From Escherichia coli (GTDB lineage Bacteria; Pseudomonadota; Gammaproteobacteria; Enterobacterales; Enterobacteriaceae), in assembly GCF_016903815.1 (NCBI RefSeq), contig NZ_CP069972.1: DNA of 64,000 bases; one strand, 5' to 3'. Below are positions 4,907 to 56,000 of the stretch, piece after piece. The stretch's first letter is position 1, and each line of letters starts with the position of its first letter. The notes below the pieces were generated by a model. The model did no database searches. It was not told where the DNA came from and saw only the letters and a program-made list of their open reading frames with translations. The translations under genes and the position numbers were made by a program.

Positions 4907-5193
4907 AAAGAGAAGGTTTCTGGCGATATGCAACACCGCCAGTCAACATCCAGGGCGTACCTCTGCCGTTCACCATGATTTATCTGTTTATATGCCCCTT
5001 TCCCTCCAAAACAACCTTCTGGATTTGCACCGGCATCATTTTATTTTTCGTTATTCTCGACCGTTCAGGCTGGACTGTCAGGACTATCTGTACACGCATT
5101 TTCAGCATTCTGAGAGGGGCCATCGCCTCCGGTCGTCCATGGTGGTATCGCCACCATACGGAATCACCACGAGACTGGACTGGCCTCGATTAA
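4903..5193 (+). CDS. traK: TraK-like small membrane protein (96 aa)
   Basis: GGGAG RBS; start overlaps traJ stop; two hydrophobic segments; operon position. Confidence 0.55.
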   Translation: MKREGFWRYATPPVNIQGVPLPFTMIYLFICPFPSKTTFWICTGIILFFVILDRSGWTVRTICTRIFSILRGAIASGRPWWYRHHTESPRDWTGLD

Positions 5194-5207
5194 ATTCTGG
5201 AGTCTTT

Positions 5208-5759
5208 ATGTCAGGTAAAAAAACTATCGTTACTCTGCTCCGGGTATCGCTACTGGCATGCCCGTTACTGTTCACGACACCATCGTTTGCAATGATCGAC
5301 ACGCCATCCGTGAAGGTCGGCTTTTCTCCTGAAGGAAGCGCATCCGCTCTGGTGCTTGACACAATCAACAGTGCGGAAAGCTCCATCAGGATGATGGCAT
5401 ATTCCTTCACCGACCCGGATGTAATGCATGCGCTGGCAAAAGCGAAAAAACGCGGAGTGGACGTCCGTATTGTTGTTGATGACAAGGGGAATACGAACCG
5501 GGCAAGTCAGGAAGCGATGAAATATATCAACCTGCTGGACATTCCTCTCCGGACTGTAGATGCCTTCCCCATCCATCACGACAAAGTCATCATTGTTGAC
5601 GGAAACACGGTTGAAACTGGCTCCTATAACTTCTCTCGTGCTGCTGCACGCAAGAATTCAGAGAATGTCGTTGTGCTCAAGAATATGCCGGATGTAGCCG
5701 CACAATATCTTGAACACTGGCAGGATCGCTGGAATAAGGGTACAGACTGGAAACCCTGA
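5208..5759 (+). CDS. nuc: Phospholipase-D-family (HKD) endonuclease, Nuc-like, secreted (183 aa)
   Basis: ATG 5208 in frame with track ORF 4848..5759; signal peptide; HKD motif HHDKVIIVDGNTVETGSYNFS; resembles plasmid Nuc (pKM101-type). Confidence 0.85.
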   Translation: MSGKKTIVTLLRVSLLACPLLFTTPSFAMIDTPSVKVGFSPEGSASALVLDTINSAESSIRMMAYSFTDPDVMHALAKAKKRGVDVRIVVDDKGNTNRASQEAMKYINLLDIPLRTVDAFPIHHDKVIIVDGNTVETGSYNFSRAAARKNSENVVVLKNMPDVAAQYLEHWQDRWNKGTDWKP

Positions 5760-32539: not shown

Positions 32540-32572
32540 GGCCGCGCCGGATTCTGGCGCGGCCTTTTTTTT
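32540..32572. terminator. Bidirectional terminator between convergent trbC and nikB
   Basis: GGCCGCGCC-loop-GGCGCGGCC then T8. Confidence 0.65.
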
Positions 32573-35270
32573 AACCTGGAGAAGGCGGTTCCCAGCGTTT
32601 ATCCTGCTCCGGCGGAGGCAGTGATGCGTCATCGTTGCTGTTCGCCGCGATATAATCGCGGTAGTAGCGTTCACTTCCTTCACGGTGATGATCCACGTCC
32701 GGTCGCGTAATCCTGTAGTCTTCGTGACCGGTACGGCCTGTCACATTATGCCAGGCAACCATTTCAGCAAAGACCTGGTTAAATTGTTTGTCGTTTCCTT
32801 CTGGTTCAAAACCCATGCGTGGATCACGCCCGAATAATACCGGTGCAATCAAATCCAGTTTATCTGCCAGCGCATTGCGGTCATGGTGATTACGGAAAAC
32901 AACCCTGTCACCATAATCCGTACAGACAAACTCTCCCGTCCGACGATCACGGAAACGAACACTCCCGTTCTTCTGCAAACGGGCCTCGAGATCACCGGTA
33001 TTACCGTATACCGGCGTTCCGCCCGGTTCACAAAGCACGACACAGCGGTCTGTTGTCGTTGTGCGTGACTTATCTTTACGGCGATCGCGATAATCCCAGC
33101 CTCTCAGCTGCGATACAGCAGCCCTGTCTCCCTGAGCAGCCTGAATTTCGACCCACTGACGGTAAGAGGGTGGATACCACTTCCCGTCAGCAATAAGTTT
33201 CTGCCGCTCATTCCTGATGTCTTCTTTCAGCCTGATCAATGCCTGCATTCGCTGAACTTCTGCAATGTGATAATGCAGCTTACGTAATGCCGGATCATCG
33301 TACTGCGCACGAATGTGTGACTTCCGCAGACGGCATGCCTGATGAATTTCCCGACAACGTTCCCCATAACGCAGATCTGGTTTACGCCATTGTTCACGCC
33401 ATGCCAGATAGCGGGCACGCAGGTCAGCACGGGCCTCAGCTCTGGCTTCACGTCGCTGCCGGCGCAGCATTGGGTCACGTTTACTGCTGACCCCGTACCT
33501 GTCACTGACAGCCAGCTCCGGGTTATAGCGACTTTCAGGTTGCACCCTGTCAAACAAATCTGCTGGGGCACTCACAAAAGGTCCGGCCTGTGGCTCTGCA
33601 CGCCCCAGAGTCAGATCAGGATGAATGCTGCTGGCCTTCACCGGCGTTTGCTCATGATTAAAGGCATCAACGACAACAAGCCCGTGATGTTGTTTCTGTA
33701 GCATCAGTCCCTGTTGTGCAAACAACTCATGACAACGCTGCCAGGTAAACTCACCCTGTGTGATCATTTCTTCAATCTGAGGGCTACAATGGCTGATGCT
33801 GTATCCCCACAGACTTTCTTTGTCAGAAAACAGTTCGCGTTTGATAGCCCCCTGCGGCCCCGTACCTGTACGCATACGGTGCCATTCTTTATCGGTCGCA
33901 GGACAGCTCTCCATACGACGACCACGGAAGCGTTCTGTTGGCGTAACCTGGAGGAAAATATCTGTTGGTACAGGCTGCCAGCCACCATCGAGTTGATTCA
34001 CATTGTCGAGCGTCAGCAGTGACCATACGCTGTCAGCACGAACGGGAGTCTGGTTATGATCATAACCGTCACAGATAACCAGGTGACCATGCTGAACACG
34101 CATCCATAATCCCGCTTCAGCCAGTGTGCGGTGAATAGCCTGGCAGTTTTCCAGCCGTCCTTCCCGTGCCATTTCCGGCAGACGTTCTCCAAGATGACGA
34201 CAGGCATACTGCTGCAGACTTTCTGTTTCAGCGATTTTTTCCGGGCGAACATCAGCTGCAATGAAGTCCGGATTATAGCGTCCTGGTGCTTCCACCTGGC
34301 TGAAAATGTCTTTTGGTACTGGCGTGTAGTCACCCATTTTTTTCATGAGTTTTTCTGCACACCAGGAGGGACCAAACGAGTCAAGCTGTACACCTTCCCT
34401 GTTGCGATCCCAGCCATCCATCACCAGAAATTTTCCGTCCATCTGAGACAGGTACAGACCATCTTCCGCAAGACGACGATGCAGGGATAACCAGTCATTT
34501 ACAGGTTCACTGCGTAAACCAGCGACCGCTGTCTGCGCGACATACTCGCGAAAAGTTTGTTTTTTTCCGCGTGTCCAAGCGTTCTGGCGATCACGTTCAA
34601 CGGCAGTTTTGCGAACGATACGATTTCCCGGCGCATGGACCCAGCAACCGTTATCCGGAGCAAAACCATGCTTCAGTTCAAGCTCACGGCAGGCACGACT
34701 GAGTTTTTCCTGACTCCATGATAATCGGTTCAGATAACCCGTTTCAGGGTGTACCCGGTTAACAGCCACATGGACGTGCAGATTATCTGTATCAGTATGC
34801 ACGGCAGAGACATACTGATGGTCGGCAAGGCCGAGTGATTTCAGCGTATGACGTACACTGTCATAAATCTGTTCCGGACGCGGGCTTTCATGTGACTGCC
34901 AGGAAAGGATGTAGTGAAAAACAGGATCAGTGTCATCTTTTGCATAGTGTGCCTGCCGGGCAATGTACTCCATATCTGCAGCGGCAGTTTCAAGAGAAGT
35001 ACAGTTATGAAAGCAGGTGACACCATAAAAGTTGACCCATTCGCAGCCGTCCTTCATGACATCAACCAGCGCCACGAATGACTCATTTCGAAGACGTGTC
35101 GCATAATCAACAAGGCGACTGAAACGGCTTCGGTGCGGTTGTTCAGCCTGCGAAGAAGAAGATAAATCCAGTTCCTCATCGGTCATGTCATCCCGGACAG
35201 AGACGTAGGATACCAGGTCTTCGAACGAAGACTTGCCGTCCCTTCTCTTTTTCGGAATGACTGCATTCAC
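32571..35270 (-). CDS. nikB: NikB, MobP-type relaxase (899 aa)
   Basis: Histidine triad ...NLHVHVAVNRVHPETGY; 899 aa; immediately downstream of nikA/oriT. Confidence 0.9.
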   Translation of the reverse strand: MNAVIPKKRRDGKSSFEDLVSYVSVRDDMTDEELDLSSSSQAEQPHRSRFSRLVDYATRLRNESFVALVDVMKDGCEWVNFYGVTCFHNCTSLETAAADMEYIARQAHYAKDDTDPVFHYILSWQSHESPRPEQIYDSVRHTLKSLGLADHQYVSAVHTDTDNLHVHVAVNRVHPETGYLNRLSWSQEKLSRACRELELKHGFAPDNGCWVHAPGNRIVRKTAVERDRQNAWTRGKKQTFREYVAQTAVAGLRSEPVNDWLSLHRRLAEDGLYLSQMDGKFLVMDGWDRNREGVQLDSFGPSWCAEKLMKKMGDYTPVPKDIFSQVEAPGRYNPDFIAADVRPEKIAETESLQQYACRHLGERLPEMAREGRLENCQAIHRTLAEAGLWMRVQHGHLVICDGYDHNQTPVRADSVWSLLTLDNVNQLDGGWQPVPTDIFLQVTPTERFRGRRMESCPATDKEWHRMRTGTGPQGAIKRELFSDKESLWGYSISHCSPQIEEMITQGEFTWQRCHELFAQQGLMLQKQHHGLVVVDAFNHEQTPVKASSIHPDLTLGRAEPQAGPFVSAPADLFDRVQPESRYNPELAVSDRYGVSSKRDPMLRRQRREARAEARADLRARYLAWREQWRKPDLRYGERCREIHQACRLRKSHIRAQYDDPALRKLHYHIAEVQRMQALIRLKEDIRNERQKLIADGKWYPPSYRQWVEIQAAQGDRAAVSQLRGWDYRDRRKDKSRTTTTDRCVVLCEPGGTPVYGNTGDLEARLQKNGSVRFRDRRTGEFVCTDYGDRVVFRNHHDRNALADKLDLIAPVLFGRDPRMGFEPEGNDKQFNQVFAEMVAWHNVTGRTGHEDYRITRPDVDHHREGSERYYRDYIAANSNDDASLPPPEQDKRWEPPSPG

Positions 35271-35280
35271 CGGAGAATCC

Positions 35281-35613
35281 TCAACCTTCCATTAACTGTT
35301 TACGCAATGTATTTGTAAGTTCGGTTATGGCAACAAGCACTTCTGCGTATTCCTTGTCACCGGTTCTTTTTCCCTGAACAAACAGATGCTTCTGCATCCT
35401 TCCCAGTCTCATTAACTCCTTCAGAAAAGCATCATCTGTCCGGGAGTTAATTCGCTTATTCAGTGCTGCATTTCGGATGTAAGCAGATACAGTAAGTCCG
35501 GAATCTTCAGCATTCTTACAGATAGTTTCATCCTCATCCGGTGAGAACCGGACCGCTCTCAGGATCGTCTTTTGCCGTCTTTCACTACCACTTCTTTGAC
35601 GTTTATCACTCAC
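35281..35613 (-). CDS. nikA: NikA, RHH relaxosome accessory protein (110 aa, GTG start)
   Basis: AAGGAG 7 nt upstream of GTG 35613; protein VSDKRQRSGSERRQKTILRAVRFSPDEDE...; track ORF extends 29 codons further without RBS. Confidence 0.85.
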   Translation of the reverse strand: MSDKRQRSGSERRQKTILRAVRFSPDEDETICKNAEDSGLTVSAYIRNAALNKRINSRTDDAFLKELMRLGRMQKHLFVQGKRTGDKEYAEVLVAITELTNTLRKQLMEG

Positions 35614-35619
35614 GGTCAG

Positions 35620-35720
35620 CTCCTTACTGGGGTGTCGGGGCGAAGCCCTGACCAGGAGGCAATTGTATAATCGCGCGTGCGCGGTTATACAATTGCACAT
35701 CCTGTCCCGTTTTTCAGTCC
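35620..35720 (+). other. oriT: oriT: 10-bp inverted repeats flanking a GC core (35661-35694) and IncP-like nick motif ATCCTG|T (predicted nic 35704/35705, + strand)
   Basis: AATTGTATAA-N14-TTATACAATT followed by GCACATCCTGTCCCG directly upstream of nikA. Confidence 0.65.
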
Positions 35721-45961: not shown

Positions 45962-46013
45962 CCCCTTATAATTGCTTATGTCCTGCCGGACGTTCGCGCG
46001 TCCGGCACCTCTC

Positions 46014-46247
46014 TTACTTAAGAATCCCGAAATCCCTGATGTACTGGTTCATCCAGTACCCGGCACAGTCCTCAAAATTCCAGGAGCGCCAGATCAACGT
46101 GCCATCCTGACGGACAACCAGGCGAAAATGCGTTCCCTGATCATCCTCGATAAAGACGTTCCGGTACTGTGCGGCAACGGCTTCCGCCTGTTCGCGGGTA
46201 AAGGAGCCGTCCGGCAGTCCCTGAAGTATTCTGAAATATTCGCTCAT
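46014..46247 (-). CDS. Hypothetical small protein (77 aa)
   Basis: GGAG 8 nt before ATG 46247; between ParB-like gene and ssb. Confidence 0.4.
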
Positions 46248-46304
46248 CCTCATATCTCCGGTGATGCCCCGCACAGGGCGGGGCGGTTGTCACAGTCAGC
46301 CCGA

Positions 46305-46832
46305 TCAGAACGGGATGTCGTCTGAAAACCCGTAATCCTCCCCCTCCGGCGGTTGCGGCTGAGGCTCTGGCTGCGCGGCCTTACGTCCACGGCCTTTCGT
46401 TTTCGCGCCACCTTTTTTCGTCGCGTCAGCACTCTGTGGCTGCCCATTCTGCTGAGGCTTCGGTTGCGCCTGAGCGTTCTGCTGTGGTGCACGTCCCAGC
46501 ATCTGCACGGTGCCCGTGGTCTTAACAAGAATTTCAGTGACGTAACGGGTGATACCGTTATCTTCCCAGCTACGGGTGCGAAGCTGACCTTCGATGTAGA
46601 CCTGCGCACCCTTGCGCAGATATTCACCTGCCACTTCCGCGAGCTTGCCGAACAGCACCACGCGGTGCCATTCCGTCTGCTCCCGCATCTCCCCCGTCTG
46701 TTTGTCACGCCAGCTTTCTGATGTGGCCACCTGCAGGTTTGCCACTGCGCCCCCGTTGGGGATGTAACGGACTTCCGGATCATTGCCCAGACGCCCGACG
46801 AGGATGACCTTGTTGATACCACGTGCACTCAT
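46305..46832 (-). CDS. ssb: Plasmid single-stranded DNA-binding protein (175 aa)
   Basis: OB-fold N-terminus [18 protein letters not shown]; Q/P-rich linker; acidic C-terminal DDIPF tail. Confidence 0.9.
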
Positions 46833-46897
46833 AAGAACCTCCTGACTGAAAGATGTGAGATAAACCGGATACCGGCGACGGGACGTTCATGTGCCCC

Positions 46898-47400
46898 TTC
46901 AGAGGAGCGAAAGCTCCTCCTGCCGTCCACTTCACAGGGGTTTCTCCCCGCAGTGGACCTTTCCGATGGGGGCCCGTTTACCGCCTCACGGGGCAGCTGT
47001 CCGGGGGCGGACGCAAAATTTTTTGCCGGGTTCATGGCTAAAAATTTTGTGGCCGGTGCATCTCACCCTGGACAGATGGAACGGGAGGGGGTTACGTCTG
47101 CCCCCCGGAAAGTCCACAGCGGGGAAACAGGCCGCAGGGGGGGCGGCAGGAGGGAGGACTGCTGCGCCATCAGGCGCAGTTTCCTCACACACCGTCAGGT
47201 GTGCAGGGAGCGCAGGTCACGGCGCGACAGGGGCGGCGCGACCGGAACGGTCGCTGCAAGCCCGGGTTTTCACGCATCGGACCGTAGCGGCAGCCCGAAA
47301 CCGCGCCAGCGGGTTCGGCGGAGACTGGCGGGTGCGCCAGCAGCTGCCCGTCGGAGTCGGGCCTGACGACCGGATGCCGCCAGGCAGCCGGGAGCCGAAG
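46898..47400 (-). repeat. Family-A repeat, copy 3 (Frpo/ssi-like), upstream of ssb
   Basis: ~500 bp near-identical to copy 2; right edge is where the intron begins. Confidence 0.6.
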
Positions 47401-47406
47401 TGGGCG

Positions 47407-49747
47407 GTGCGACAGGAAGTCGCTTAACGTATTGTTTTACATTGATAAAACCAGCTATCCCATTAGCTGTAGCCTACCGGGACAGGCGTTGCCGGCAACG
47501 GCGGGGTCTGAAGCTCCCGGGACAACGAGAGCCGGGCGTCAGCCCGGGTAATGCCCCGTGAGGGGCTTTACCTTGCTGCAAGCATCATGCGGCAGGAGAG
47601 CAAGGCTGGTCAGAAGGGTTAACACATGTGAACTGTTGATAAACACCGTTATCGGCAACAGGCCAAAGATGCTGACAGGCCTGAACCAAAAGGTACGGGG
47701 TCCGGTTGCTACCTCGCGCACAGGGAGCACATGGGCGCAGAGACCCCCGGTGAAGAGACAGAACCCGCCCTGACCCTCTGTATGTTAAGCGGAACCTGGT
47801 AAACCCGTATCGCTGCCTCACAGGCAGGTGAACCGCAAGGAACACTGTTAGCGGTGCGGGCATAGGAGGACGGAAAAAGCGAATGCCCGGCTGTAATAAC
47901 CGGGATACGGGGCAGGTTCCCCGACGCGAAAGCGGGCAGACTTCCGTCTGGTCTTTAATTGCATGAAAAGCTGTAAAGCAGTCAAAAGGATATCAGCGAG
48001 ATGAATACACACATCAGTGTGTCCACGATACCCCACCCGACAGGCTGGCACACCATAAACTGGAAAGCATGCCATGCCCGGGTGCGAAAGCTACAGTTAC
48101 GGATTGCAAAGGCAACCCGACAGCAACAATGGCGGCAGGTCAGAGAACTACAGCGCATCCTCACCCGCTCATTCTCCGGCAAAGCCGTGGCTGTCAGGCG
48201 TGTAACTGAAAATACCGGTAAAAGGACACCCGGTATTGACGGAAAAATATGGCACACACCGAAGGAGAAATGGGAAGGAATATGCAGCCTGAATCTGTGT
48301 GGTTACAGGCCACAGCCACTACGGCGAATACATATCCCAAAATCAAACGGCAAAACGCGACCGCTGGGCATACCCACAATGAGGGACCGGGCCATGCAGG
48401 CACTGTGGCTGCTGGCTCTGGAACCCGTATCCGAGACCACTGCTGACCATAACAGCTATGGTTTCAGACCAATGCGCAGCACGCATGACGCCATTGAGTC
48501 CATTTTTCTGCGGATGAGCCAGAAAGTATCGCCCAAATGGATACTGGAGGGCGATATTAAAGGGTGCTTCGATAACATCAGCCATGACTGGCTGCTTTCC
48601 CATATTCCGATGGACAGGAGACTGCTTAAAAAATGGTTGAAAGCAGGTTACATGGAAAGAGGCGTGTTTAACCATACGAACAGCGGGACACCGCAGGGAG
48701 GCATCATATCCCCTGTTCTCGCCAACATGGCTCTGGACGGACTGGAGAAGGAACTGATGCAAACGTTCAGGAAAAGTGGTTATCACAGTGCAAAGCACCA
48801 GGTGAATTATGTGAGATATGCTGATGATTTCATCTGTTCAGGCAGCTCCCGTGAATTGCTGGAAAATGAGGTCAGACCACTGATTGCAGCTTTCATGCGC
48901 GAACGAGGGCTGGAACTGTCGGAAGAAAAAACAGCGATCACACATATAGATAAAGGCTTCGACTTTTTAGGGCAGAACGTCAGGAAGTACAACGGTAAAA
49001 TGCTGATTAAACCGTCGAAGAAAAACCTGAAGAACTTCCTCTGTAAAGTCAGAGAAATAATTAAACGCAATCCGACGCTCCCGGCATGGAAACTGATAGG
49101 CCAGCTAAACCCGGTGATCCGGGGATGGGCTACCTATCACCGACACGTCGTGGCGAAAGAAACATTTAATTATGTCGACACCCAAATCTGGCGAGCTATA
49201 TGGCGATGGTGTGTAAGACGGCATCCCCGGAAAGGATTGCGGTGGATCGCCGGACGATACTTCTCCTTTGAAGGCAGGCGCTGGATCTTTAAAGCCATAA
49301 CCCCGGAAGGGAAAATTCTGACACTCTTCCGGGCAATGGAAACACCGATAAAGCGCCATATAAAAATCAAAGGCGAAGCAACACCATACACCCCCGGAAT
49401 GGAAATCTACTTTGAACGTCGTCTGGATCTAATCTGGAAAGGCAAATCAAAGAAGATGAAGACAGTAGTTCAACTCTGGAAGAGGCAGGGGAAACACTGT
49501 CCGCAGTGCGGACAACTCATAACCAACCAGACCGGATGGAATATACATCACCGGATCAGGAAAGTTATGGGCGGCAGTGACGAACTGACCAATCTCGAGT
49601 TGTTACATCCGAACTGCCACCGACAGTTACACAGCAGGGAAGCCGGTGCTCACCGAAAGCACTTATAAAGGCTTGAGCGGAGTGCGGGGAAACTCGCACG
49701 CTCCGTTCTTAGGGGGCGGCGGCGCAGCAATGTGCCGCTGCTACCCG
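47407..49747 (+). mobile_element. Group II intron (boundaries approximate)
   Basis: 5' GTGCG at 47407; ORF in domain IV; domain V-like 34-nt hairpin 49675-49708; domain VI-like stem to ~49747. Confidence 0.8.
48001..49668 (+). CDS. Group II intron-encoded reverse transcriptase/maturase with HNH endonuclease (555 aa)
   Basis: RT motifs incl. YADD; maturase X region; C-terminal HNH (HCPQCG...HHRIRKVMGG...HPNCHRQLH). Confidence 0.9.
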   Translation: MNTHISVSTIPHPTGWHTINWKACHARVRKLQLRIAKATRQQQWRQVRELQRILTRSFSGKAVAVRRVTENTGKRTPGIDGKIWHTPKEKWEGICSLNLCGYRPQPLRRIHIPKSNGKTRPLGIPTMRDRAMQALWLLALEPVSETTADHNSYGFRPMRSTHDAIESIFLRMSQKVSPKWILEGDIKGCFDNISHDWLLSHIPMDRRLLKKWLKAGYMERGVFNHTNSGTPQGGIISPVLANMALDGLEKELMQTFRKSGYHSAKHQVNYVRYADDFICSGSSRELLENEVRPLIAAFMRERGLELSEEKTAITHIDKGFDFLGQNVRKYNGKMLIKPSKKNLKNFLCKVREIIKRNPTLPAWKLIGQLNPVIRGWATYHRHVVAKETFNYVDTQIWRAIWRWCVRRHPRKGLRWIAGRYFSFEGRRWIFKAITPEGKILTLFRAMETPIKRHIKIKGEATPYTPGMEIYFERRLDLIWKGKSKKMKTVVQLWKRQGKHCPQCGQLITNQTGWNIHHRIRKVMGGSDELTNLELLHPNCHRQLHSREAGAHRKHL

Positions 49748-49946
49748 ACCAATAAAAGACAGCCAGAAACGGTGACAGTGTCACGGAATATCACACCTGT
49801 TCCCTGCATACAGCCATACACTACCTTCTGACCGGAAAGCCGGGCCGGCAGCGCCGCAGGCGCTGCACCCCGCGTTTCCGGCAGGCGTCAGCCTGCCAGG
49901 GGTTTTCGCGCGGGCTGACAGGCGGCCTCCACCGCCTGCCCCTGTA

Positions 49947-50138
49947 TCACCTGTTTCTGCTGCCCTGAAGGATGTAGTGACCGCCCAGGAAAACCGCCTG
50001 CTGATTCGCCACAAAATCGCAGATTTCATCAACAATCTGCGCGGTGGTGAGCGGTTTCTGCCCCATTTCACGACGCCGCGCATTAATCACGGCCCTGTAA
50101 TTACGCAGAATTTCGCGGGTTTCTGTGCTGATATTCAT
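49947..50138 (-). CDS. Hypothetical small protein (63 aa)
   Basis: Start overlaps stop of upstream ORF (coupling); 3' end runs into the repeat flank, so it may be truncated. Confidence 0.3.
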   Translation of the reverse strand: MNISTETREILRNYRAVINARRREMGQKPLTTAQIVDEICDFVANQQAVFLGGHYILQGSRNR

Positions 50139-50557
50139 GACATCGTCTCCCCGTCCAGCGCCTGCAACACAACGTCCATTGCTTCGAGTTCCTCCCTGAC
50201 GAATGCGTCACCGTCGCCCCCGTTCTCACTCCCGACGGCATACAGGCGCTTCATTTCACTACCTGCCAGCGCCATCACTTTTTCCAGCATCACCGCCGGG
50301 ACTGTCACATGACGGCTGGCGCGCTTTTCTTCCATCAGTTCATTGACAATATCGGAAACAACTCTGTCACATGCGCCATATACAAAAGCATCGTCCAGCC
50401 GCTGCATGACGGTTTCCAGCTCATCGTCTGACAGGTTCCAGTCCTGGGCTATGTGACGCACATCCCCACGGGTCAGCACCACGGCAAAAACGCATTCACT
50501 GTCCGGCACGTCTGTATCCAGTACATCGCGGATGATTTCTTTAACAGTACAGTACAT
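50135..50557 (-). CDS. Hypothetical leading-region protein (140 aa), paralogue of 52260..52694
   Basis: Shared blocks with the 144-aa ORF (LSD[DH]E.[IE]TV...RL[DE]D; VTVPA); downstream of klcA-like gene. Confidence 0.5.
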   Translation of the reverse strand: MYCTVKEIIRDVLDTDVPDSECVFAVVLTRGDVRHIAQDWNLSDDELETVMQRLDDAFVYGACDRVVSDIVNELMEEKRASRHVTVPAVMLEKVMALAGSEMKRLYAVGSENGGDGDAFVREELEAMDVVLQALDGETMS

Positions 50558-50603
50558 GTTCTCGTCTCCTTTACAGGGGCGGCATTGCCGCCCCGTCCGT
50601 TAA

Positions 50604-51029
50604 TCAGTCAAGTGCCGCGTAAATCGCGTTGCATTCGGGGTGAAATTCGATGTGGCTCCACAACTGCGCATCACGCATCCTGTACAGGTGTGTCAACCCT
50701 GCATCCCCGCTGTCGTGGTACAGCCACAACTGGCGGTTAATCACAAGGGAGGTAAGGATGATGCCTGCGGCATCAGCGCTCACGGTACGGTCAAACCAGT
50801 TTGCACCGTTCACCATGTGGAAACGGTCGCCATCCGGCATCATGTAACCGCCACCGTCCGGCAGGCGGATGAAGTGCCAGAATCCGCCTTCATATTCCGG
50901 CATCATTTTTTTCGCCAGCGCGTATACAGACGCTTCGGCATACAGAAAATCCAGGCCAAACAGGTAAGGCAGAAAAGACAGACGGTCGCACTCTTCAACG
51001 TTCAGAGTGACAGGTTTCGCATATTGCAT
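50604..51029 (-). CDS. klcA: KlcA/ArdB-family antirestriction protein (141 aa)
   Basis: Conserved blocks [44 protein letters not shown] as in KlcA/ArdB. Confidence 0.75.
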
Positions 51030-51054
51030 GATGTTTTCCTCCGTTGTTCACATA

Positions 51055-51387
51055 TTCCGCGACACCGGGCGGTGCCGTGCCTCCATCTTTGCCGGGCCTG
51101 CAGGGTTGCAAGGGCGCAAGGGAAGCCGCAGCCTGACGCGCACGGCTGACGGGAGTTGAAGGGTGAGACCGCGAAATCTGAGCGGGTGAACGACCGGAAA
51201 ATCACGGCAGACGGGAAGGAGGGACCGGGTGACCGCAGCGGTTCACCTTACCTTGCAACCCGCCCGCAGAAGCCCGGCTACGATGGAGGCACGGCACAGC
51301 CCGCACACGGCGCTGAGGCCACATAACTGAAAACCCACAAGGCCATGCCCCGCATGGCCGGGTAAAGCGGAGCCTGCGGCGACATCC
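51055..51387 (-). repeat. Family-B repeat, copy 2 (Frpo/ssi-like), upstream of klcA-like gene
   Basis: Near-identical to 41762-42095. Confidence 0.55.
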
Positions 51388-51444
51388 TTTTGCTCTTTCC
51401 GGGGACCGGCTGGAAAAGGCGGAGATTTTTCCCCGCCAGCGTCA

Positions 51445-52215
51445 TCATTTCCGGATTTTCGCCAGTGCATCCGCCATGCTGCGGATTTCAGTCCGGGCTT
51501 CCAGGACCACCTCCCGCAGAATATCCCGGTCAAACCAGCGACGGGACGGTTCATCCGGTATACGCAGCACATCGCAGGCCAGCCCACTGGACAGGATATG
51601 CTCCACACACTCACTGACCAGATACATTTCCACCGACGAAAAACGAGCGCCCCGGTTCAGGATGGCATCGAGCACCACGGGCAGGTTTTCGTCGTCTTCA
51701 TCGAGCCAGCAGGGGTGATCGCTTTCCTTCACAACCAGGCGAAAGCGGCGCGTCTGGCGGGTCAGCAACGTCTGACCGGTTGTGGTCAGCGCCGCCCTGA
51801 TACGCCGCGCATCTTCTGCCACCCGGCAACTGACACTGCGTACCGCATCGTGCACCGCATCAAGAACTGCCCTGATTTCGTCTTCGGTCAGCCATTCTCC
51901 GGCATACGGGAAAGACACCTGCGTTCCGTCTGCCGGAAGTACCGGCAGCGACTGCCACTGACTGCCGGACAGAACAAGTTCCGCCCCGGTTCCGGTCAGT
52001 TTCTGAATGGCAGAGGCCAGGAGCGGCGGCAGTACGCCGCCGTGACGGTTGATAAGTAACGTCGCCAGCCGGGGCGCATCCAGCAGAACATAAATGCTGA
52101 TCCAGCCCGGATACTTCGGGTTACGCTGGTCAACATCCGTCTCTTCCGGCCAGCCCTGCGCCAGCAGCAGGTTACGGGCGTGGCGACAAATCAGTGCATT
52201 CAGCGTTTCGTTCAT
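51445..52215 (-). CDS. Hypothetical leading-region protein (256 aa)
   Basis: Long ORF, no motif recognised. Confidence 0.5.
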
Positions 52216-52259
52216 GATTCATGGTCTCCCTGAATCGCCGCCCGCAGGCGGCGATAACA

Positions 52260-52694
52260 TCAGTCGTTTTCGCGTGTGTTGTTTTTCAGCAGGGCGCGGG
52301 CCTGATTAACCACCGCCTGTCGGCGGGTGACGCATTCCGGGACGGCGAGGCCGTTATCACGGGCGGCCCACTCACGTTTCCACAGTGCCTGTTCGGCGGT
52401 CTGAATCAGGGACGCCAGCAGTTCAGCAGGGACGGTCACCTGGCGGTTTTCTCTCACGTTATTGATGATCTCCATCGCCGCACCGGAAGAAATACCGGAT
52501 TCAGTCCGCTGGTCTTCCGGGATGTCCTCCAGGCGCGCCAGGACAGTCCTGATTTCATGATCGGACAGGGAAATATCCATTCCGTCAGCGAGGGCCTGAA
52601 TTTCTTCCGGGGACCAGATAACCAGCATCAGCGGCGTATCTCCCGGATACTTTGCTGCCAGCGCCCGGCAGAGCGTTTCGCATGTTCCGTACAT
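52260..52694 (-). CDS. Hypothetical leading-region protein (144 aa), paralogue of 50135..50557
   Basis: See paralogue. Confidence 0.5.
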   Translation of the reverse strand: MYGTCETLCRALAAKYPGDTPLMLVIWSPEEIQALADGMDISLSDHEIRTVLARLEDIPEDQRTESGISSGAAMEIINNVRENRQVTVPAELLASLIQTAEQALWKREWAARDNGLAVPECVTRRQAVVNQARALLKNNTREND

Positions 52695-52707
52695 TCTCGT
52701 CTCCTTC

Positions 52708-52929
52708 TCAATCTTTGAAGCAGGAATCCAGTTCCAGAATTTCGGTATACGCTTCCATGAACAGGCGATTGGCGCGATACAGCGTCTGGCGTGTCAGGCG
52801 TTCAACAAGCACATCGGAATCAAAGCGACAGCGATGCTCCATATCGTTCAGCCTGGCCCGAAGGTCACACATGGTGTTGGCCACCTCCGCCACGTCGGCG
52901 CGAAGTTTTTCGTGTCCGGCATAGTTCAT
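52708..52929 (-). CDS. Hypothetical small protein (73 aa)
   Basis: Stop abuts MTase start (52930); operon-like. Confidence 0.4.
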   Translation of the reverse strand: MNYAGHEKLRADVAEVANTMCDLRARLNDMEHRCRFDSDVLVERLTRQTLYRANRLFMEAYTEILELDSCFKD

Positions 52930-53613
52930 TTACGCAGCCTCCGGTTCAAACCAGTTATCATTCGCGGCCCCCTGCTGCATGGCCCGTTGCACGGCGGTCA
53001 GTCGTTGCTGTCCGGCACGGTGATACTGTTCAAGCAGCTCGATACCGATATACCGGCGTCCGGACTGAAGAGCGGCCACGCAGGTTGATCCGCTGCCTGC
53101 AAACGGGTCCAGCACAATCGCGTTCGGATGTGTGAAGCTCTCAATCAGTGGTTGCAGGCTGGTAACGGGCTTTTCCGTCGGGTGATGGCGATTGCCCGAA
53201 TATTTCCAGCCCAGCACGTCCGGCAGCGGGTTTTGTGGCAGACGTGGACGGCCTTTTGCCAGGATGTAGGCACATTCGTGGCGATAGCCCACATATGCGG
53301 CCTTCGATGTGTAGTTTTTGGTGAAGACCAGGTGACCAACAACGCTGAATCCCGCATTTTTCCAGGCAGACATAAAACGATCGACGCGATTCCAGCCATA
53401 GAAGCTCACCATTAACGCGTCTTTTTTGAGTACGCGGTACATCTCATTACAGGCCGGTTGCAGCCATTCATCGGTTTTATCGCCGGCAATGGTACGCCCC
53501 TGACGGTCACGAAAACCGACGAGGTACGGCGGGTCGGTGAGGATGAAATCAATGGCGTTATCAGGGATACGGGCCATAACATCGATGCAGTTACCGAGGA
53601 CAAAACGGGACAT
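52930..53613 (-). CDS. Orphan DNA methyltransferase, N6-adenine/N4-cytosine type (227 aa)
   Basis: Motif IV ILTDPPY near N-terminus; motif I-like DPFAGSGST near C-terminus; no restriction gene adjacent. Confidence 0.85.
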   Translation of the reverse strand: MSRFVLGNCIDVMARIPDNAIDFILTDPPYLVGFRDRQGRTIAGDKTDEWLQPACNEMYRVLKKDALMVSFYGWNRVDRFMSAWKNAGFSVVGHLVFTKNYTSKAAYVGYRHECAYILAKGRPRLPQNPLPDVLGWKYSGNRHHPTEKPVTSLQPLIESFTHPNAIVLDPFAGSGSTCVAALQSGRRYIGIELLEQYHRAGQQRLTAVQRAMQQGAANDNWFEPEAA

Positions 53614-53996
53614 ACCAAACTCCTTCTCTTACAGAGGGCACCGGGAGGGCACCCCTGTGGTGCCCGTTCCCCGCTGCCTGTGGGCTGTTCACCGCGTCCG
53701 GTAACGGGTCAGGCCGACCGTGGAATACCGCAGCCGTCGTCTTTTTGACGGCAAGGCTATGCCGCGAAAGCGGCTTGAAGGGCGTTCATCAGAAAAGGGC
53801 GACGGGCTGGCGTACACTGTCACCGACGCCAGCCGGGAGCGGTAAAAGCGCCCGTCCCGTGCCCGGCCGGACGCGGACACTGACCACAGGCAGCGTTTAT
53901 GCCGCGCCGCGTCAGCCGGCGCAGTAAAAAGAGGAGCACGGCGACATCCTTTACCGGAAAAGAAACGGGCGGTTGCCCGCCCGTCTCCGTCATACT

Positions 53997-54923
53997 TCAT
54001 CCGCCATAATGCGCCACATTGTCGATTATCCACGCAGGTCCGGTGACTTCCGGCAGCTCATCATCATCTGTCGGGGAAGACCATTCCAGTTCCCCCCACA
54101 GCACATCAACGAGCTCTCCGCGCTCATACAACTGCCAGCCACAGAAATTGCAGCCCTGTTCGGCGTACCAGTGCTCCAGCGTGCAGCCGAAACGGCGGCT
54201 TAATTCTGCAACAACGTCGCTTTCCGGCTGACACCACGGCGTGTCGAAATCTACCTGAATGAAGTTTTCCCCCTGACTGCTGATATTCAGGTCATACCCA
54301 CAAGGCCACTTCACGCCATACCGTTCTGTATACCAGTGATATGCAGAAGGAACACCGTTCAGAACACCGCCGTTAAAGCCATTCACTTCAATATCCAGGC
54401 GGGTCGGCAAAACCGTCAGCAGGTCAAACGGCATGGTTTTTTCCGGCAGTACGTTGTCACACAGACGGTTCCACCACACCGATACATCCTCGTTACCCCA
54501 GATGTCACACCAGTCACCTCTTTTTGCGGTGAAATGCACAGTGATAGTTTCCCTGACATCATCCGGTAACTCTTCCCAGCGACGCTGTCCAGTACCGCTC
54601 TGCAGCCAGAGTTCATGCAGCATCAGGCAGTTTTGCTCATCCAGCAGTACACCGTTCTGCAGGTGTGTCAGCCAGCGGGTGAACGCGATATTTTCCGGTG
54701 ATACAGCACCACGTCCGGCAGCCGTCACTCCGGGGCACTGCTCAGAGCGGATATTTTCAGTGATCTGCAGAAGTCCGGCACTTCCGGCCAGAAACAGCTG
54801 AATACCTTCATTTGTGGCGCGGCGATAAAGCGGTGTAACTGCACCGCTGGCCAGTCGTTTAATCTCAGCGATCTGTGCCGGTTCACCAGAAAAATACATA
54901 CGATTCGAGCACCAGTTTGGCAT
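53997..54923 (-). CDS. Hypothetical leading-region protein (308 aa)
   Basis: GAGGAG before ATG 54923 (inside track ORF); W/C-rich; no motif recognised. Confidence 0.5.
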   Translation of the reverse strand: MPNWCSNRMYFSGEPAQIAEIKRLASGAVTPLYRRATNEGIQLFLAGSAGLLQITENIRSEQCPGVTAAGRGAVSPENIAFTRWLTHLQNGVLLDEQNCLMLHELWLQSGTGQRRWEELPDDVRETITVHFTAKRGDWCDIWGNEDVSVWWNRLCDNVLPEKTMPFDLLTVLPTRLDIEVNGFNGGVLNGVPSAYHWYTERYGVKWPCGYDLNISSQGENFIQVDFDTPWCQPESDVVAELSRRFGCTLEHWYAEQGCNFCGWQLYERGELVDVLWGELEWSSPTDDDELPEVTGPAWIIDNVAHYGG

Positions 54924-55275
54924 GGGAATTCTCCTCTCACATGCGGCCTCCATCAGGCCGTGCCGCACCTGTTACCGGGCGACCGCATACGAATGCAGGT
55001 GCGGCCCCGAAGCCGCAGCGCGTGGAGGAGGAACGACGAAACGTGACCGGGTGAGGAGGCCGGCGACAGCGACACACTTGCATCGGATGCAGCCCGGTTA
55101 ACGTGCCGGCACGGCCTGGGTAACCAGGTATTTTGTCCACAGAACCGTGCACAAAATGCTGTGGATAAGCTGGACACAGCAGCCCACAGCAGGCATACAG
55201 CCACACACTCAGAGAATTGAGCGTTTTTTAGTCACAACAATGACATTTGACTGTGTGCGGATTCAGTTATTAGAA

Positions 55276-55295
55276 TACTGTATAAACATACAGCA
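55276..55295 (+). promoter_or_regulatory. LexA (SOS) box upstream of impC
   Basis: TACTGTATAAACATACAGCA fits CTGT-N8-ACAG; 22 nt upstream of impC. Confidence 0.75.
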
Positions 55296-55317
55296 TAAAG
55301 AAAAGGGAGATGAGAAC

Positions 55318-55566
55318 ATGATCCGCATTGAAATTCTTTTCGACCGCCAGAGCACAAAAAACCTCAAATCAGGCACACTTCAGGCGCTACAGAATGAAAT
55401 CGAACAACGTCTGAAACCACACTACCCGGAAATCTGGCTGCGTATAGACCAGGGCAGCGCCCCGTCTGTATCTGTCACAGGAGCCCGCAACGACAAGGAT
55501 AAAGAACGTATCCTGTCTCTGCTGGAAGAAATCTGGCAGGACGACAGCTGGCTGCCTGCAGCATGA
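55318..55566 (+). CDS. impC: ImpC, DinI-like regulator (82 aa)
   Basis: GGGAG RBS; ATG 55318 internal to track ORF; first gene of SOS-boxed operon. Confidence 0.75.
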   Translation: MIRIEILFDRQSTKNLKSGTLQALQNEIEQRLKPHYPEIWLRIDQGSAPSVSVTGARNDKDKERILSLLEEIWQDDSWLPAA

Positions 55567-56000
55567 GTACCGTTTATCACCGTCCGGCTGACCCTTCAGG
55601 CGATGACAGTTACGTGCGACCGTTGTTTGCCGATCGTTGCCAGGCCGGTTTTCCTTCGCCTGCCACTGATTATGCTGAGCAGGAACTGGATCTGAACAGC
55701 TATTGCATCAGCAGACCTGCAGCCACCTTCTTTCTGCGCGCCAGCGGTGAATCGATGAACCAGGCTGGCGTGCAGAATGGTGATCTGCTGGTAGTGGACA
55801 GGGCCGAAAAACCACAACACGGGGACATCGTTATCGCTGAGATCGACGGTGAGTTCACCGTCAAACGACTGCTGTTGCGCCCACGCCCGGCACTGGAGCC
55901 GGTTTCAGACAGCCCGGAGTTCCGCACACTGTATCCGGAAAACATCTGTATTTTTGGTGTTGTCACTCACGTGATACACAGGACGCGGGAGTTACGCTGA
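55563..56000 (+). CDS. impA: ImpA, UmuD/MucA-like S24 peptidase (145 aa)
   Basis: LexA/UmuD-type fold with RASGESM and lysine dyad; ATGA overlap with impC. Confidence 0.85.
   Translation: MSTVYHRPADPSGDDSYVRPLFADRCQAGFPSPATDYAEQELDLNSYCISRPAATFFLRASGESMNQAGVQNGDLLVVDRAEKPQHGDIVIAEIDGEFTVKRLLLRPRPALEPVSDSPEFRTLYPENICIFGVVTHVIHRTRELR

Follow-up and report, generated by a model that had tools for sequence, protein, structure and literature searches.

A leading-region gene block with candidate single-stranded-DNA promoters around klcA and an orphan methyltransferase in a putative IncI-complex plasmid of Escherichia coli

Gene content and plasmid setting of the block

We examined a 64,000-nucleotide stretch of Escherichia coli DNA (NCBI RefSeq assembly GCF_016903815.1, contig NZ_CP069972.1), referred to here as the window, and within it a block of eight open reading frames (ORFs) in which a klcA-like antirestriction gene and an orphan DNA methyltransferase gene are interleaved with genes of unfamiliar function. 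An ORF listing over 46-59 kb returned every ORF that a first-pass annotation, made from the letters of the sequence alone, had described, all of them on the minus strand and at unchanged coordinates (Table 1). A Shine-Dalgarno sequence lies 5-10 nt ahead of the ATG of each, and the start codon of the ORF of 63 amino acids (aa) overlaps the stop codon of the gene upstream by 4 nt (ATGA). Ratios of nonsynonymous to synonymous substitution rates (dN/dS), obtained by comparing the window with plasmid pESBL and with the F plasmid, range from 0.05 to 0.37 across the block. This purifying selection acts on all of the ORFs, which argues that they are genuine genes and not chance reading frames.

The methyltransferase is 93.4% identical to the N6-adenine methyltransferase M.EcoGIX. 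It matches NCBIfam PRK13699 (E = 7.9e-151; 500 bits against a cutoff of 244) and PADLOC MTase_II, and its translation holds the motifs TDPPY and FAGSGST, of the DPPY catalytic type and the FxGxG S-adenosylmethionine-binding type. The KlcA-like protein matches the Pfam family Antirestrict (PF03230, E = 3.1e-26) and phrog_10132 and is 95.7% identical to KlcA/ArdB of pESBL; by homology, it would be an antirestriction protein.

The block, its operon structure, its promoters and the candidate status of its unfamiliar genes are all already known from earlier literature, to which the window contributes one more copy and a few small observations. In pESBL, an IncI1 plasmid of E. coli O104:H4 (locus L002), the same genes stand in the same order and orientation, Hp8-M.EcoGIX-Hp9-Hp10-YchA-KlcA-Hp12-Hp13 (PMC4288162), and their products are 77-98% identical to those of the window. 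The two plasmids differ in that a group II intron of 2343 bp separates the 63-aa gene from ssb in the window, and in that the YubE/Hp9 allele of the window is much diverged from that of pESBL and closer to the F allele. The F plasmid (NC_002483; locus L003) has the same seven genes from the methylase to the 63-aa gene, in the same order and upstream of ssb, with dN values of 0.014-0.049 relative to the window and a YchA homologue of 258 aa. Its backbone, in contrast, is MOBF and IncF, no impCAB operon lies next to its block, and PLSDB lists no DUF1281 gene there, although the sequence upstream of its hairpin includes a related stretch.

Synonymous divergence (dS) differs widely between neighboring genes of the block, and this inequality points to a mosaic, recombining history. 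The YubE gene is one example: with a dN/dS of 0.13-0.21, its allele is near that of F (dS 0.09) and far from that of pESBL (dS ~1.0; 77% amino acid identity). The gene thus appears to be mosaic, and the different relationships of the genes flanking it indicate frequent recombination within the block.

The wider setting is that of a conjugative plasmid. A relaxase gene of the MOBP type and a MobA/NikA-like gene lie at 32571-35700, and the block lies 14-19 kb beyond them. On the same strand beyond the relaxase are genes for ArdA, PsiA, PsiB, a ParB-like protein, a DUF905 protein and SSB, and the block is bounded by a divergent, umuDC-like impCAB operon. The eight ORFs share their strand with ardA, psiB and ssb and point toward the origin of transfer (oriT); the identity of the transferred strand was taken from the IncI1 literature. 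This arrangement resembles the leading-region anti-defence islands described by Samuel et al. (2024; PMC11541004). The block falls within approximately the first 30 ORFs from oriT, and the genes templated by the transferred strand, the clustering of anti-defence genes and the umuDC-like genes at the far edge of those islands are all also found in the window. Six families of the block match entries among the largest leading-region-enriched families of that study: DUF1380 (no. 7), the methyltransferase (8), KlcA (9), YchA (10), YcjA/YubJ (14) and DUF1281 (27). The median positions of the matching families are 15-22, and the non-enzymatic ones among them are labelled uncharacterised (PMC11541004).

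At 90% DNA identity or more, the block occurs in at least 5000 plasmid records of PLSDB, and a 5.1-kb block is 100% identical in many IncI-complex plasmids of Shigella, E. coli and Klebsiella. Together, these features make us fairly confident that the window derives from an IncI-complex (MOBP) conjugative plasmid and that the block is the oriT-distal end of its leading region. This degree of confidence is a joint one, covering the leading-region block, its two early transcription units, their hairpin promoters and the roles that we infer for the encoded proteins.

The group II intron of the window is complete, measures exactly 2343 bp (47407-49749, plus strand) and contains a reverse transcriptase/maturase ORF at 48001-49668. 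It is inserted 197 nt past the stop codon of the 63-aa gene and 574 nt before the start of ssb, runs antisense to the genes of the leading region, and does not occur in an otherwise identical plasmid (L001). A search of Rfam over 46000-56000 matched only two parts of this intron (D1-D4 and domain V/VI).

Table 1. Genes and intergenic hairpins of the block in the window (aa, amino acids)
Feature	Position	Strand	Remarks
63-aa basic ORF (pESBL Hp13)	49947-50138	-	Last gene of the proposed klcA unit
DUF1380 paralogue 1, 140 aa (pESBL Hp12; other names YcjA, YcgC, YubJ)	50135-50557	-	
KlcA/ArdB-type antirestriction gene	50604-51029	-	First gene of the proposed class 2 promoter unit
Intergenic hairpin, predicted class 2 single-stranded-DNA promoter for klcA	51030-51444	+	Fold and identity to pESBL
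YchA, 256 aa (pESBL Hp11; other names NgrC, YubG)	51445-52215	-	Last gene of the proposed methyltransferase unit
DUF1380 paralogue 2, 144 aa (pESBL Hp10; other names YcgB, YceB, YubF)	52260-52694	-	
73-aa ORF (pESBL Hp9; Pfam YubE family PF27407)	52708-52929	-	Abuts the stop codon of the methyltransferase gene
M.EcoGIX-type orphan N6-adenine DNA methyltransferase	52930-53613	-	First gene of the proposed class 3 promoter unit
Intergenic hairpin, predicted class 3 single-stranded-DNA promoter for the methyltransferase unit	53614-53996	+	Fold and conservation
DUF1281/YubB (Api92-like) gene, 308 aa (pESBL Hp8)	53997-54923	-	Probably its own transcription unit
Weaker inverted repeat between the DUF1281 gene and divergent impCAB	54954-55118	+	27-nt arms

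Intergenic hairpins and transcription units

The first-pass annotation had described the block as a single operon-like unit. The intergenic sequences instead suggest two transcription units and a separate DUF1281 gene. In one unit, a predicted class 3 single-stranded-DNA promoter would drive the methylase, YubE, DUF1380 paralogue 2 and YchA; in the other, a predicted class 2 promoter would drive KlcA/ArdB, DUF1380 paralogue 1 and the 63-aa protein. The genes that head these units follow unusually long gaps, of 415 nt for klcA and 383 nt for the methylase, and both gaps fold stably as single-stranded DNA of the plus strand. The predicted folding energy is -103.6 kcal/mol for the klcA gap (z = -4.15; 0 of 100 shuffles as stable) and -109.3 kcal/mol for the methylase gap (z = -7.10), compared with z-scores of -0.64, -0.67 and -1.28 for three coding controls of equal length. 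A terminator-like hairpin after YchA (51336-51354) could end the methylase unit, and a terminator-like GC-rich stem (53965-53984) with a T-run (53956-53964), read from the minus-strand sequence directly after the DUF1281 stop codon, sets that gene off from the methylase. A simple scan of the minus strand of the block found no sigma-70-like duplex promoter.

The basal stem of the klcA hairpin, which pairs 51066-51097 with 51272-51303, has 32-nt arms that are 91% complementary, and a near-identical second copy of the hairpin lies upstream of ardA. In four copies, the klcA/ardA basal stem is invariant except for a 4-nt internal loop. This loop faces a -10-like TA(C/A)GAT on the distal arm and thereby recalls the mismatch bubble at the -10 element of Frpo-type promoters.

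Both hairpin regions are considerably more conserved than expected under neutrality. The class 2 region is 90% identical to its pESBL counterpart, and the class 3 region is 97.9% identical to that of pESBL and 95% to that of F, next to a methyltransferase gene with a dS of 0.39-0.53; overall, the hairpin regions of the window and F are 88-95% identical. Measured against synonymous sites of the adjacent genes, the class 3 gap is approximately 8-fold and the class 2 gap approximately 2.5-fold less diverged. The class 3 region is present in at least 5000 plasmids, in nearly all of them at 95% identity or more. Consensus folding retains the stems in all copies (window, pESBL and F) with few compensatory changes, among them two compensatory pairs in the class 3 region of F. 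By sequence comparison, the class 2 and class 3 hairpins have no relation to each other.

These hairpins correspond to elements characterized in pESBL, where six hairpin promoters were identified and their start sites mapped by 5' rapid amplification of cDNA ends (5'RACE) (PMC12672017). That study defined class 2 (klcA and ardA) and class 3 (M.EcoGIX) single-stranded-DNA promoters, found them to lack sequence homology to class 1, and reported their conservation in F. RNA sequencing of early transconjugants in the same study revealed up to ~500-fold induction of the pESBL orthologues 15 min after transfer. The Frpo/ssi promoters of F and ColIb-P9, which make up class 1, follow the same principle, in that promoter elements are re-formed when the transferred strand folds into a long, imperfect hairpin. 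The survey of leading-region islands discussed above searched for promoters of this Frpo type, whereas the two in the block would be of classes 2 and 3, which were defined later (PMC11541004). A strong class-1-like hairpin (z = -7.9) also lies upstream of ssb, outside the block, where the intron has left it intact.

Two further observations concern the neighborhood of these elements. RefSeq places a 103-aa 'hypothetical protein' within the class 3 hairpin region (53689-54000, minus strand); this ORF has no Shine-Dalgarno sequence and a predicted isoelectric point (pI) of 11.7, and probably represents a false gene call, since copied into the annotation of thousands of plasmids. The inverted repeat at 54954-55118, approximately 30 nt upstream of the DUF1281 start, has arms that are 78% complementary, in a region 99% identical to pESBL. 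We considered it as a further copy of the class 2 or class 3 promoter and rejected it, as 27 and 39 of 300 shuffles reach the similarity score.

Taken together, these features are consistent with the following sequence of events. During conjugation, the plus strand of the window would enter the recipient first, as single-stranded DNA, and long stem-loops formed by its intergenic regions would restore promoter elements in double-stranded form. Host RNA polymerase could then transcribe the block genes for a few minutes, until synthesis of the complementary strand melts the hairpins and silences them. As factors that bind other proteins and aid establishment or counter defence, the co-transcribed small proteins would be active during the same brief interval.

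The DUF1380 paralogues

The first-pass annotation had singled out two ORFs, of 140 and 144 aa, as paralogues, and pairwise alignment bears this out: they are 27% identical over 116 aa (BLASTP, E = 2e-8) and share the blocks LSD.E..TV..RL.D and R.VTVPA. The duplication is ancient, and the DNA of the two copies has diverged wholly except in short blocks. Both proteins match phrog_9024, paralogue 1 with E = 2.7e-4 and paralogue 2 with E = 4.3e-73. Paralogue 2 is a canonical member of PF07128, which its homologues at 90% identity or more also carry; it is 94% identical to pESBL Hp10 and has a dN/dS of 0.22-0.28. Its AlphaFold2 model is poor, with a predicted local distance difference test (pLDDT) score of 57, and all-helical. 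Paralogue 1, with a net charge of -17 and a pI of 4.24, has an independent E-value of just 0.0034 against Pfam DUF1380, and precomputed Pfam assignments are blank for most of its close homologues. The BLASTP match, the R.VTVPA hinge and the in-frame chimeras described below nonetheless support its placement as a divergent member of DUF1380.

Wider homologue searches returned DUF1380 proteins from enterobacterial plasmids only and no informative domain fusion, and searches of PDB sequences with DUF1380, using both single sequences and profiles, gave chance-level matches only. Among phage records, paralogue 1 had no protein match and the DNA matched a single 1.9-kb fragment; the PHROG memberships therefore do not indicate a phage origin.

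The first-pass annotation had taken the duplication to suggest either diversifying selection or a dosage effect. No other gene of the block has as high a dN/dS as paralogue 1 (up to 0.37), and alleles are mosaic between plasmids. However, every whole-gene dN/dS is well under 1, including those of the two paralogues (0.18-0.37), which runs counter to diversifying selection. Nor do the data favor a dosage effect: at 27% identity the copies are two old, separately conserved subfamilies and hence not redundant, each lies behind a different promoter class, and a related lineage (locus L011) has one copy. We consider both forms of this proposal very improbable.

The single DUF1380 gene of L011 is 57% identical to paralogue 2, and KlcA in that locus is followed directly by the 63-aa gene. 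Either the IncF/IncI lineage would have gained paralogue 1 or L011 would have lost it. The two genes have also recombined with each other. Natural in-frame chimeras join the N-terminal half of paralogue 2 to the C-terminal half of paralogue 1 at RQVTVPA; one such chimera (P0141) was read on 24 contigs, and loci L008-L010 carry the chimeric gene at positions 5001-5429 in each. The chimera plasmids have lost YchA, the class 2 promoter and klcA. The loss of these intervening genes suggests that the pair can serve as a direct repeat through which the segment between its members is deleted. DUF1380 thus appears to be an old duplication whose N- and C-terminal halves seem interchangeable. Other forms include a second type of chimera (P0197) and one with an internal duplication (P0121). 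In another locus (L004, 3608-4078), a gene for a 156-aa protein immediately precedes that of a distant YchA homologue. Over its last 70 residues, this protein has weak similarity to the N-terminal portion of DUF1380 (shared motifs YP.D and L(S/T)D.EI; hhalign probability 25%), and it could be distantly related to the N-domain of that family.

One paralogue lies in each unit downstream of the anti-restriction effector, an arrangement that would suit cofactors or regulators of the gene heading the unit, with paralogue 2 serving the methylase and paralogue 1 serving KlcA. The reported dependence of M.EcoGIX activity in vitro on PolI (PMC7736820) makes partner proteins plausible. On the other hand, M.EcoGIX methylates adenine specifically in single-stranded DNA also when cloned alone (PMC7736820), and the genes are not consistently found together: L011 has no paralogue 1 between KlcA and the 63-aa gene, another locus (L006) has KlcA and a YchA-like gene without the methyltransferase or DUF1380, and the chimera plasmids retain one hybrid DUF1380 gene after the loss of KlcA and YchA. 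We therefore regard dedicated pairing of each paralogue with its effector as unlikely.

Many DUF1380 members (for example, P0393) are named 'adenine-specific methyltransferase' in UniProt and NCBI, and the name has been carried into one published family table. Comparison with the adjacent methyltransferase, however, gives a BLASTP E of 45 and an hhalign probability of 0.1%, there is no N6_N4_Mtase Pfam match, and DUF1380, at 140 aa and predicted to be all-helical, contains no DPPY or FxGxG in its sequence. Given this lack of similarity, Pfam match and motifs, we rejected the label; it is extremely unlikely that DUF1380 proteins are adenine-specific DNA methyltransferases. The name has probably spread from gene calls fused or adjacent to a real methyltransferase.

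Candidate roles of the uncharacterised proteins

Direct searches of NCBIfam, PADLOC and Pfam gave no match for the ORFs of 63, 73 and 256 aa and, for paralogue 1, only the weak match to DUF1380. The 63-aa protein, which also has no PHROG family, is 98% identical to pESBL Hp13, with a dN/dS of 0.07-0.11 from few substitutions, and KlcA of the distant locus L011 is followed by an orthologue with 60% identity. The 73-aa protein matches phrog_4830 (E = 9.8e-37), and precomputed Pfam assignments of its orthologues give PF27407:YubE, a new Pfam family. The predicted model of YchA is confident (pLDDT 92) and has no annotated structural relative, and searches of PDB sequences with single sequences and profiles gave only chance-level matches. 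Homologues of YchA with 25-40% identity adjoin KlcA or ArdA in other leading regions. The DUF1281 protein, which is 93.8% identical to pESBL Hp8, matches Pfam DUF1281 (E = 1.8e-46) followed by the ferredoxin-like DUF1281_C (E = 1.4e-14), as well as phrog_37043. Over residues 3-274 it matches the structural-genomics PDB entry 2IJR, 'hypothetical protein api92' (E = 3.1e-47), and it is acidic, with 16 Trp and 10 Cys residues.

Of the proteins of the block, only the methylase and KlcA have homologues with an established role in anti-defence. M.EcoGIX shields pESBL from EcoGIII restriction on entry (PMC7736820; PMC4288162), and by homology the methylase of the window would modify the incoming strand, protecting it against type II restriction. 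The first-pass view of the entire block as an anti-defence block therefore holds in part: the leading-region setting, with KlcA/ArdB and an M.EcoGIX-type methyltransferase, agrees with it, whereas for the six other ORFs we can only infer such a role. The same gene families have been classed as leading-region-enriched and 'uncharacterized, probably anti-defence' (PMC11541004). The DUF1380 pair, YubE, YchA and the 63-aa protein are small, mostly acidic and without recognisable catalytic motifs, and our best guess is that they would be short-lived, protein-binding establishment or anti-defence factors. We think it possible, although we hold this only tentatively, that at least one of the five uncharacterised families inhibits a host defence other than classical restriction. 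The best candidate is YchA, because it combines a confident model that has no annotated structural relative with recurrence beside KlcA/ArdA; the very acidic, two-module DUF1380 proteins come next. If true, this would define a new family of anti-defence proteins, expressed from the single strand as it enters the recipient.

A serious alternative, to which we give somewhat less credence, is that the unfamiliar proteins are establishment factors unrelated to defence, acting, for example, in host reprogramming, in modulation of the SOS response or replication, or in the conversion of single- to double-stranded DNA. There is a precedent nearby, in that the neighboring leading-region ParB-like protein YfjB/HerB proved to be a reprogrammer of host transcription and not an anti-defence protein (PMC13370423). 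The proteins also have no matches to anti-defence or defence families, and their dispensability for transfer into E. coli K-12 would fit either role. Against this alternative, both units begin with a gene of known anti-restriction function, KlcA or ArdA is again the neighbor of YchA homologues in distant plasmids, and several of the proteins share strong acidity with the DNA mimic ArdA. None of these points is decisive.

Several observations also weigh against our overall explanation, that of a leading-region block expressed early from hairpin promoters and encoding establishment or anti-defence factors. The unfamiliar genes are all dispensable for maintenance of pESBL and for its transfer into E. 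coli K-12 (PMC4288162), and no homology, structural match or defence-database match links any of these ORFs to a target. With regard to the promoters, -35 and -10 hexamers at standard spacing could not be placed convincingly in either hairpin, the assignment draws on 90-98% identity to the pESBL elements together with folding, and the inverted repeat upstream of the DUF1281 gene folds weakly (z = -2.7).

In E. coli, Salmonella, Klebsiella and Shigella, thousands of resistance and virulence plasmids carry the genes of this block, which by homology to pESBL would be among the earliest to be expressed in a new host. Knowledge of the roles of DUF1380, YubE, YchA, the 63-aa protein and DUF1281 would therefore help to explain how these plasmids become established and could suggest ways to block their spread.

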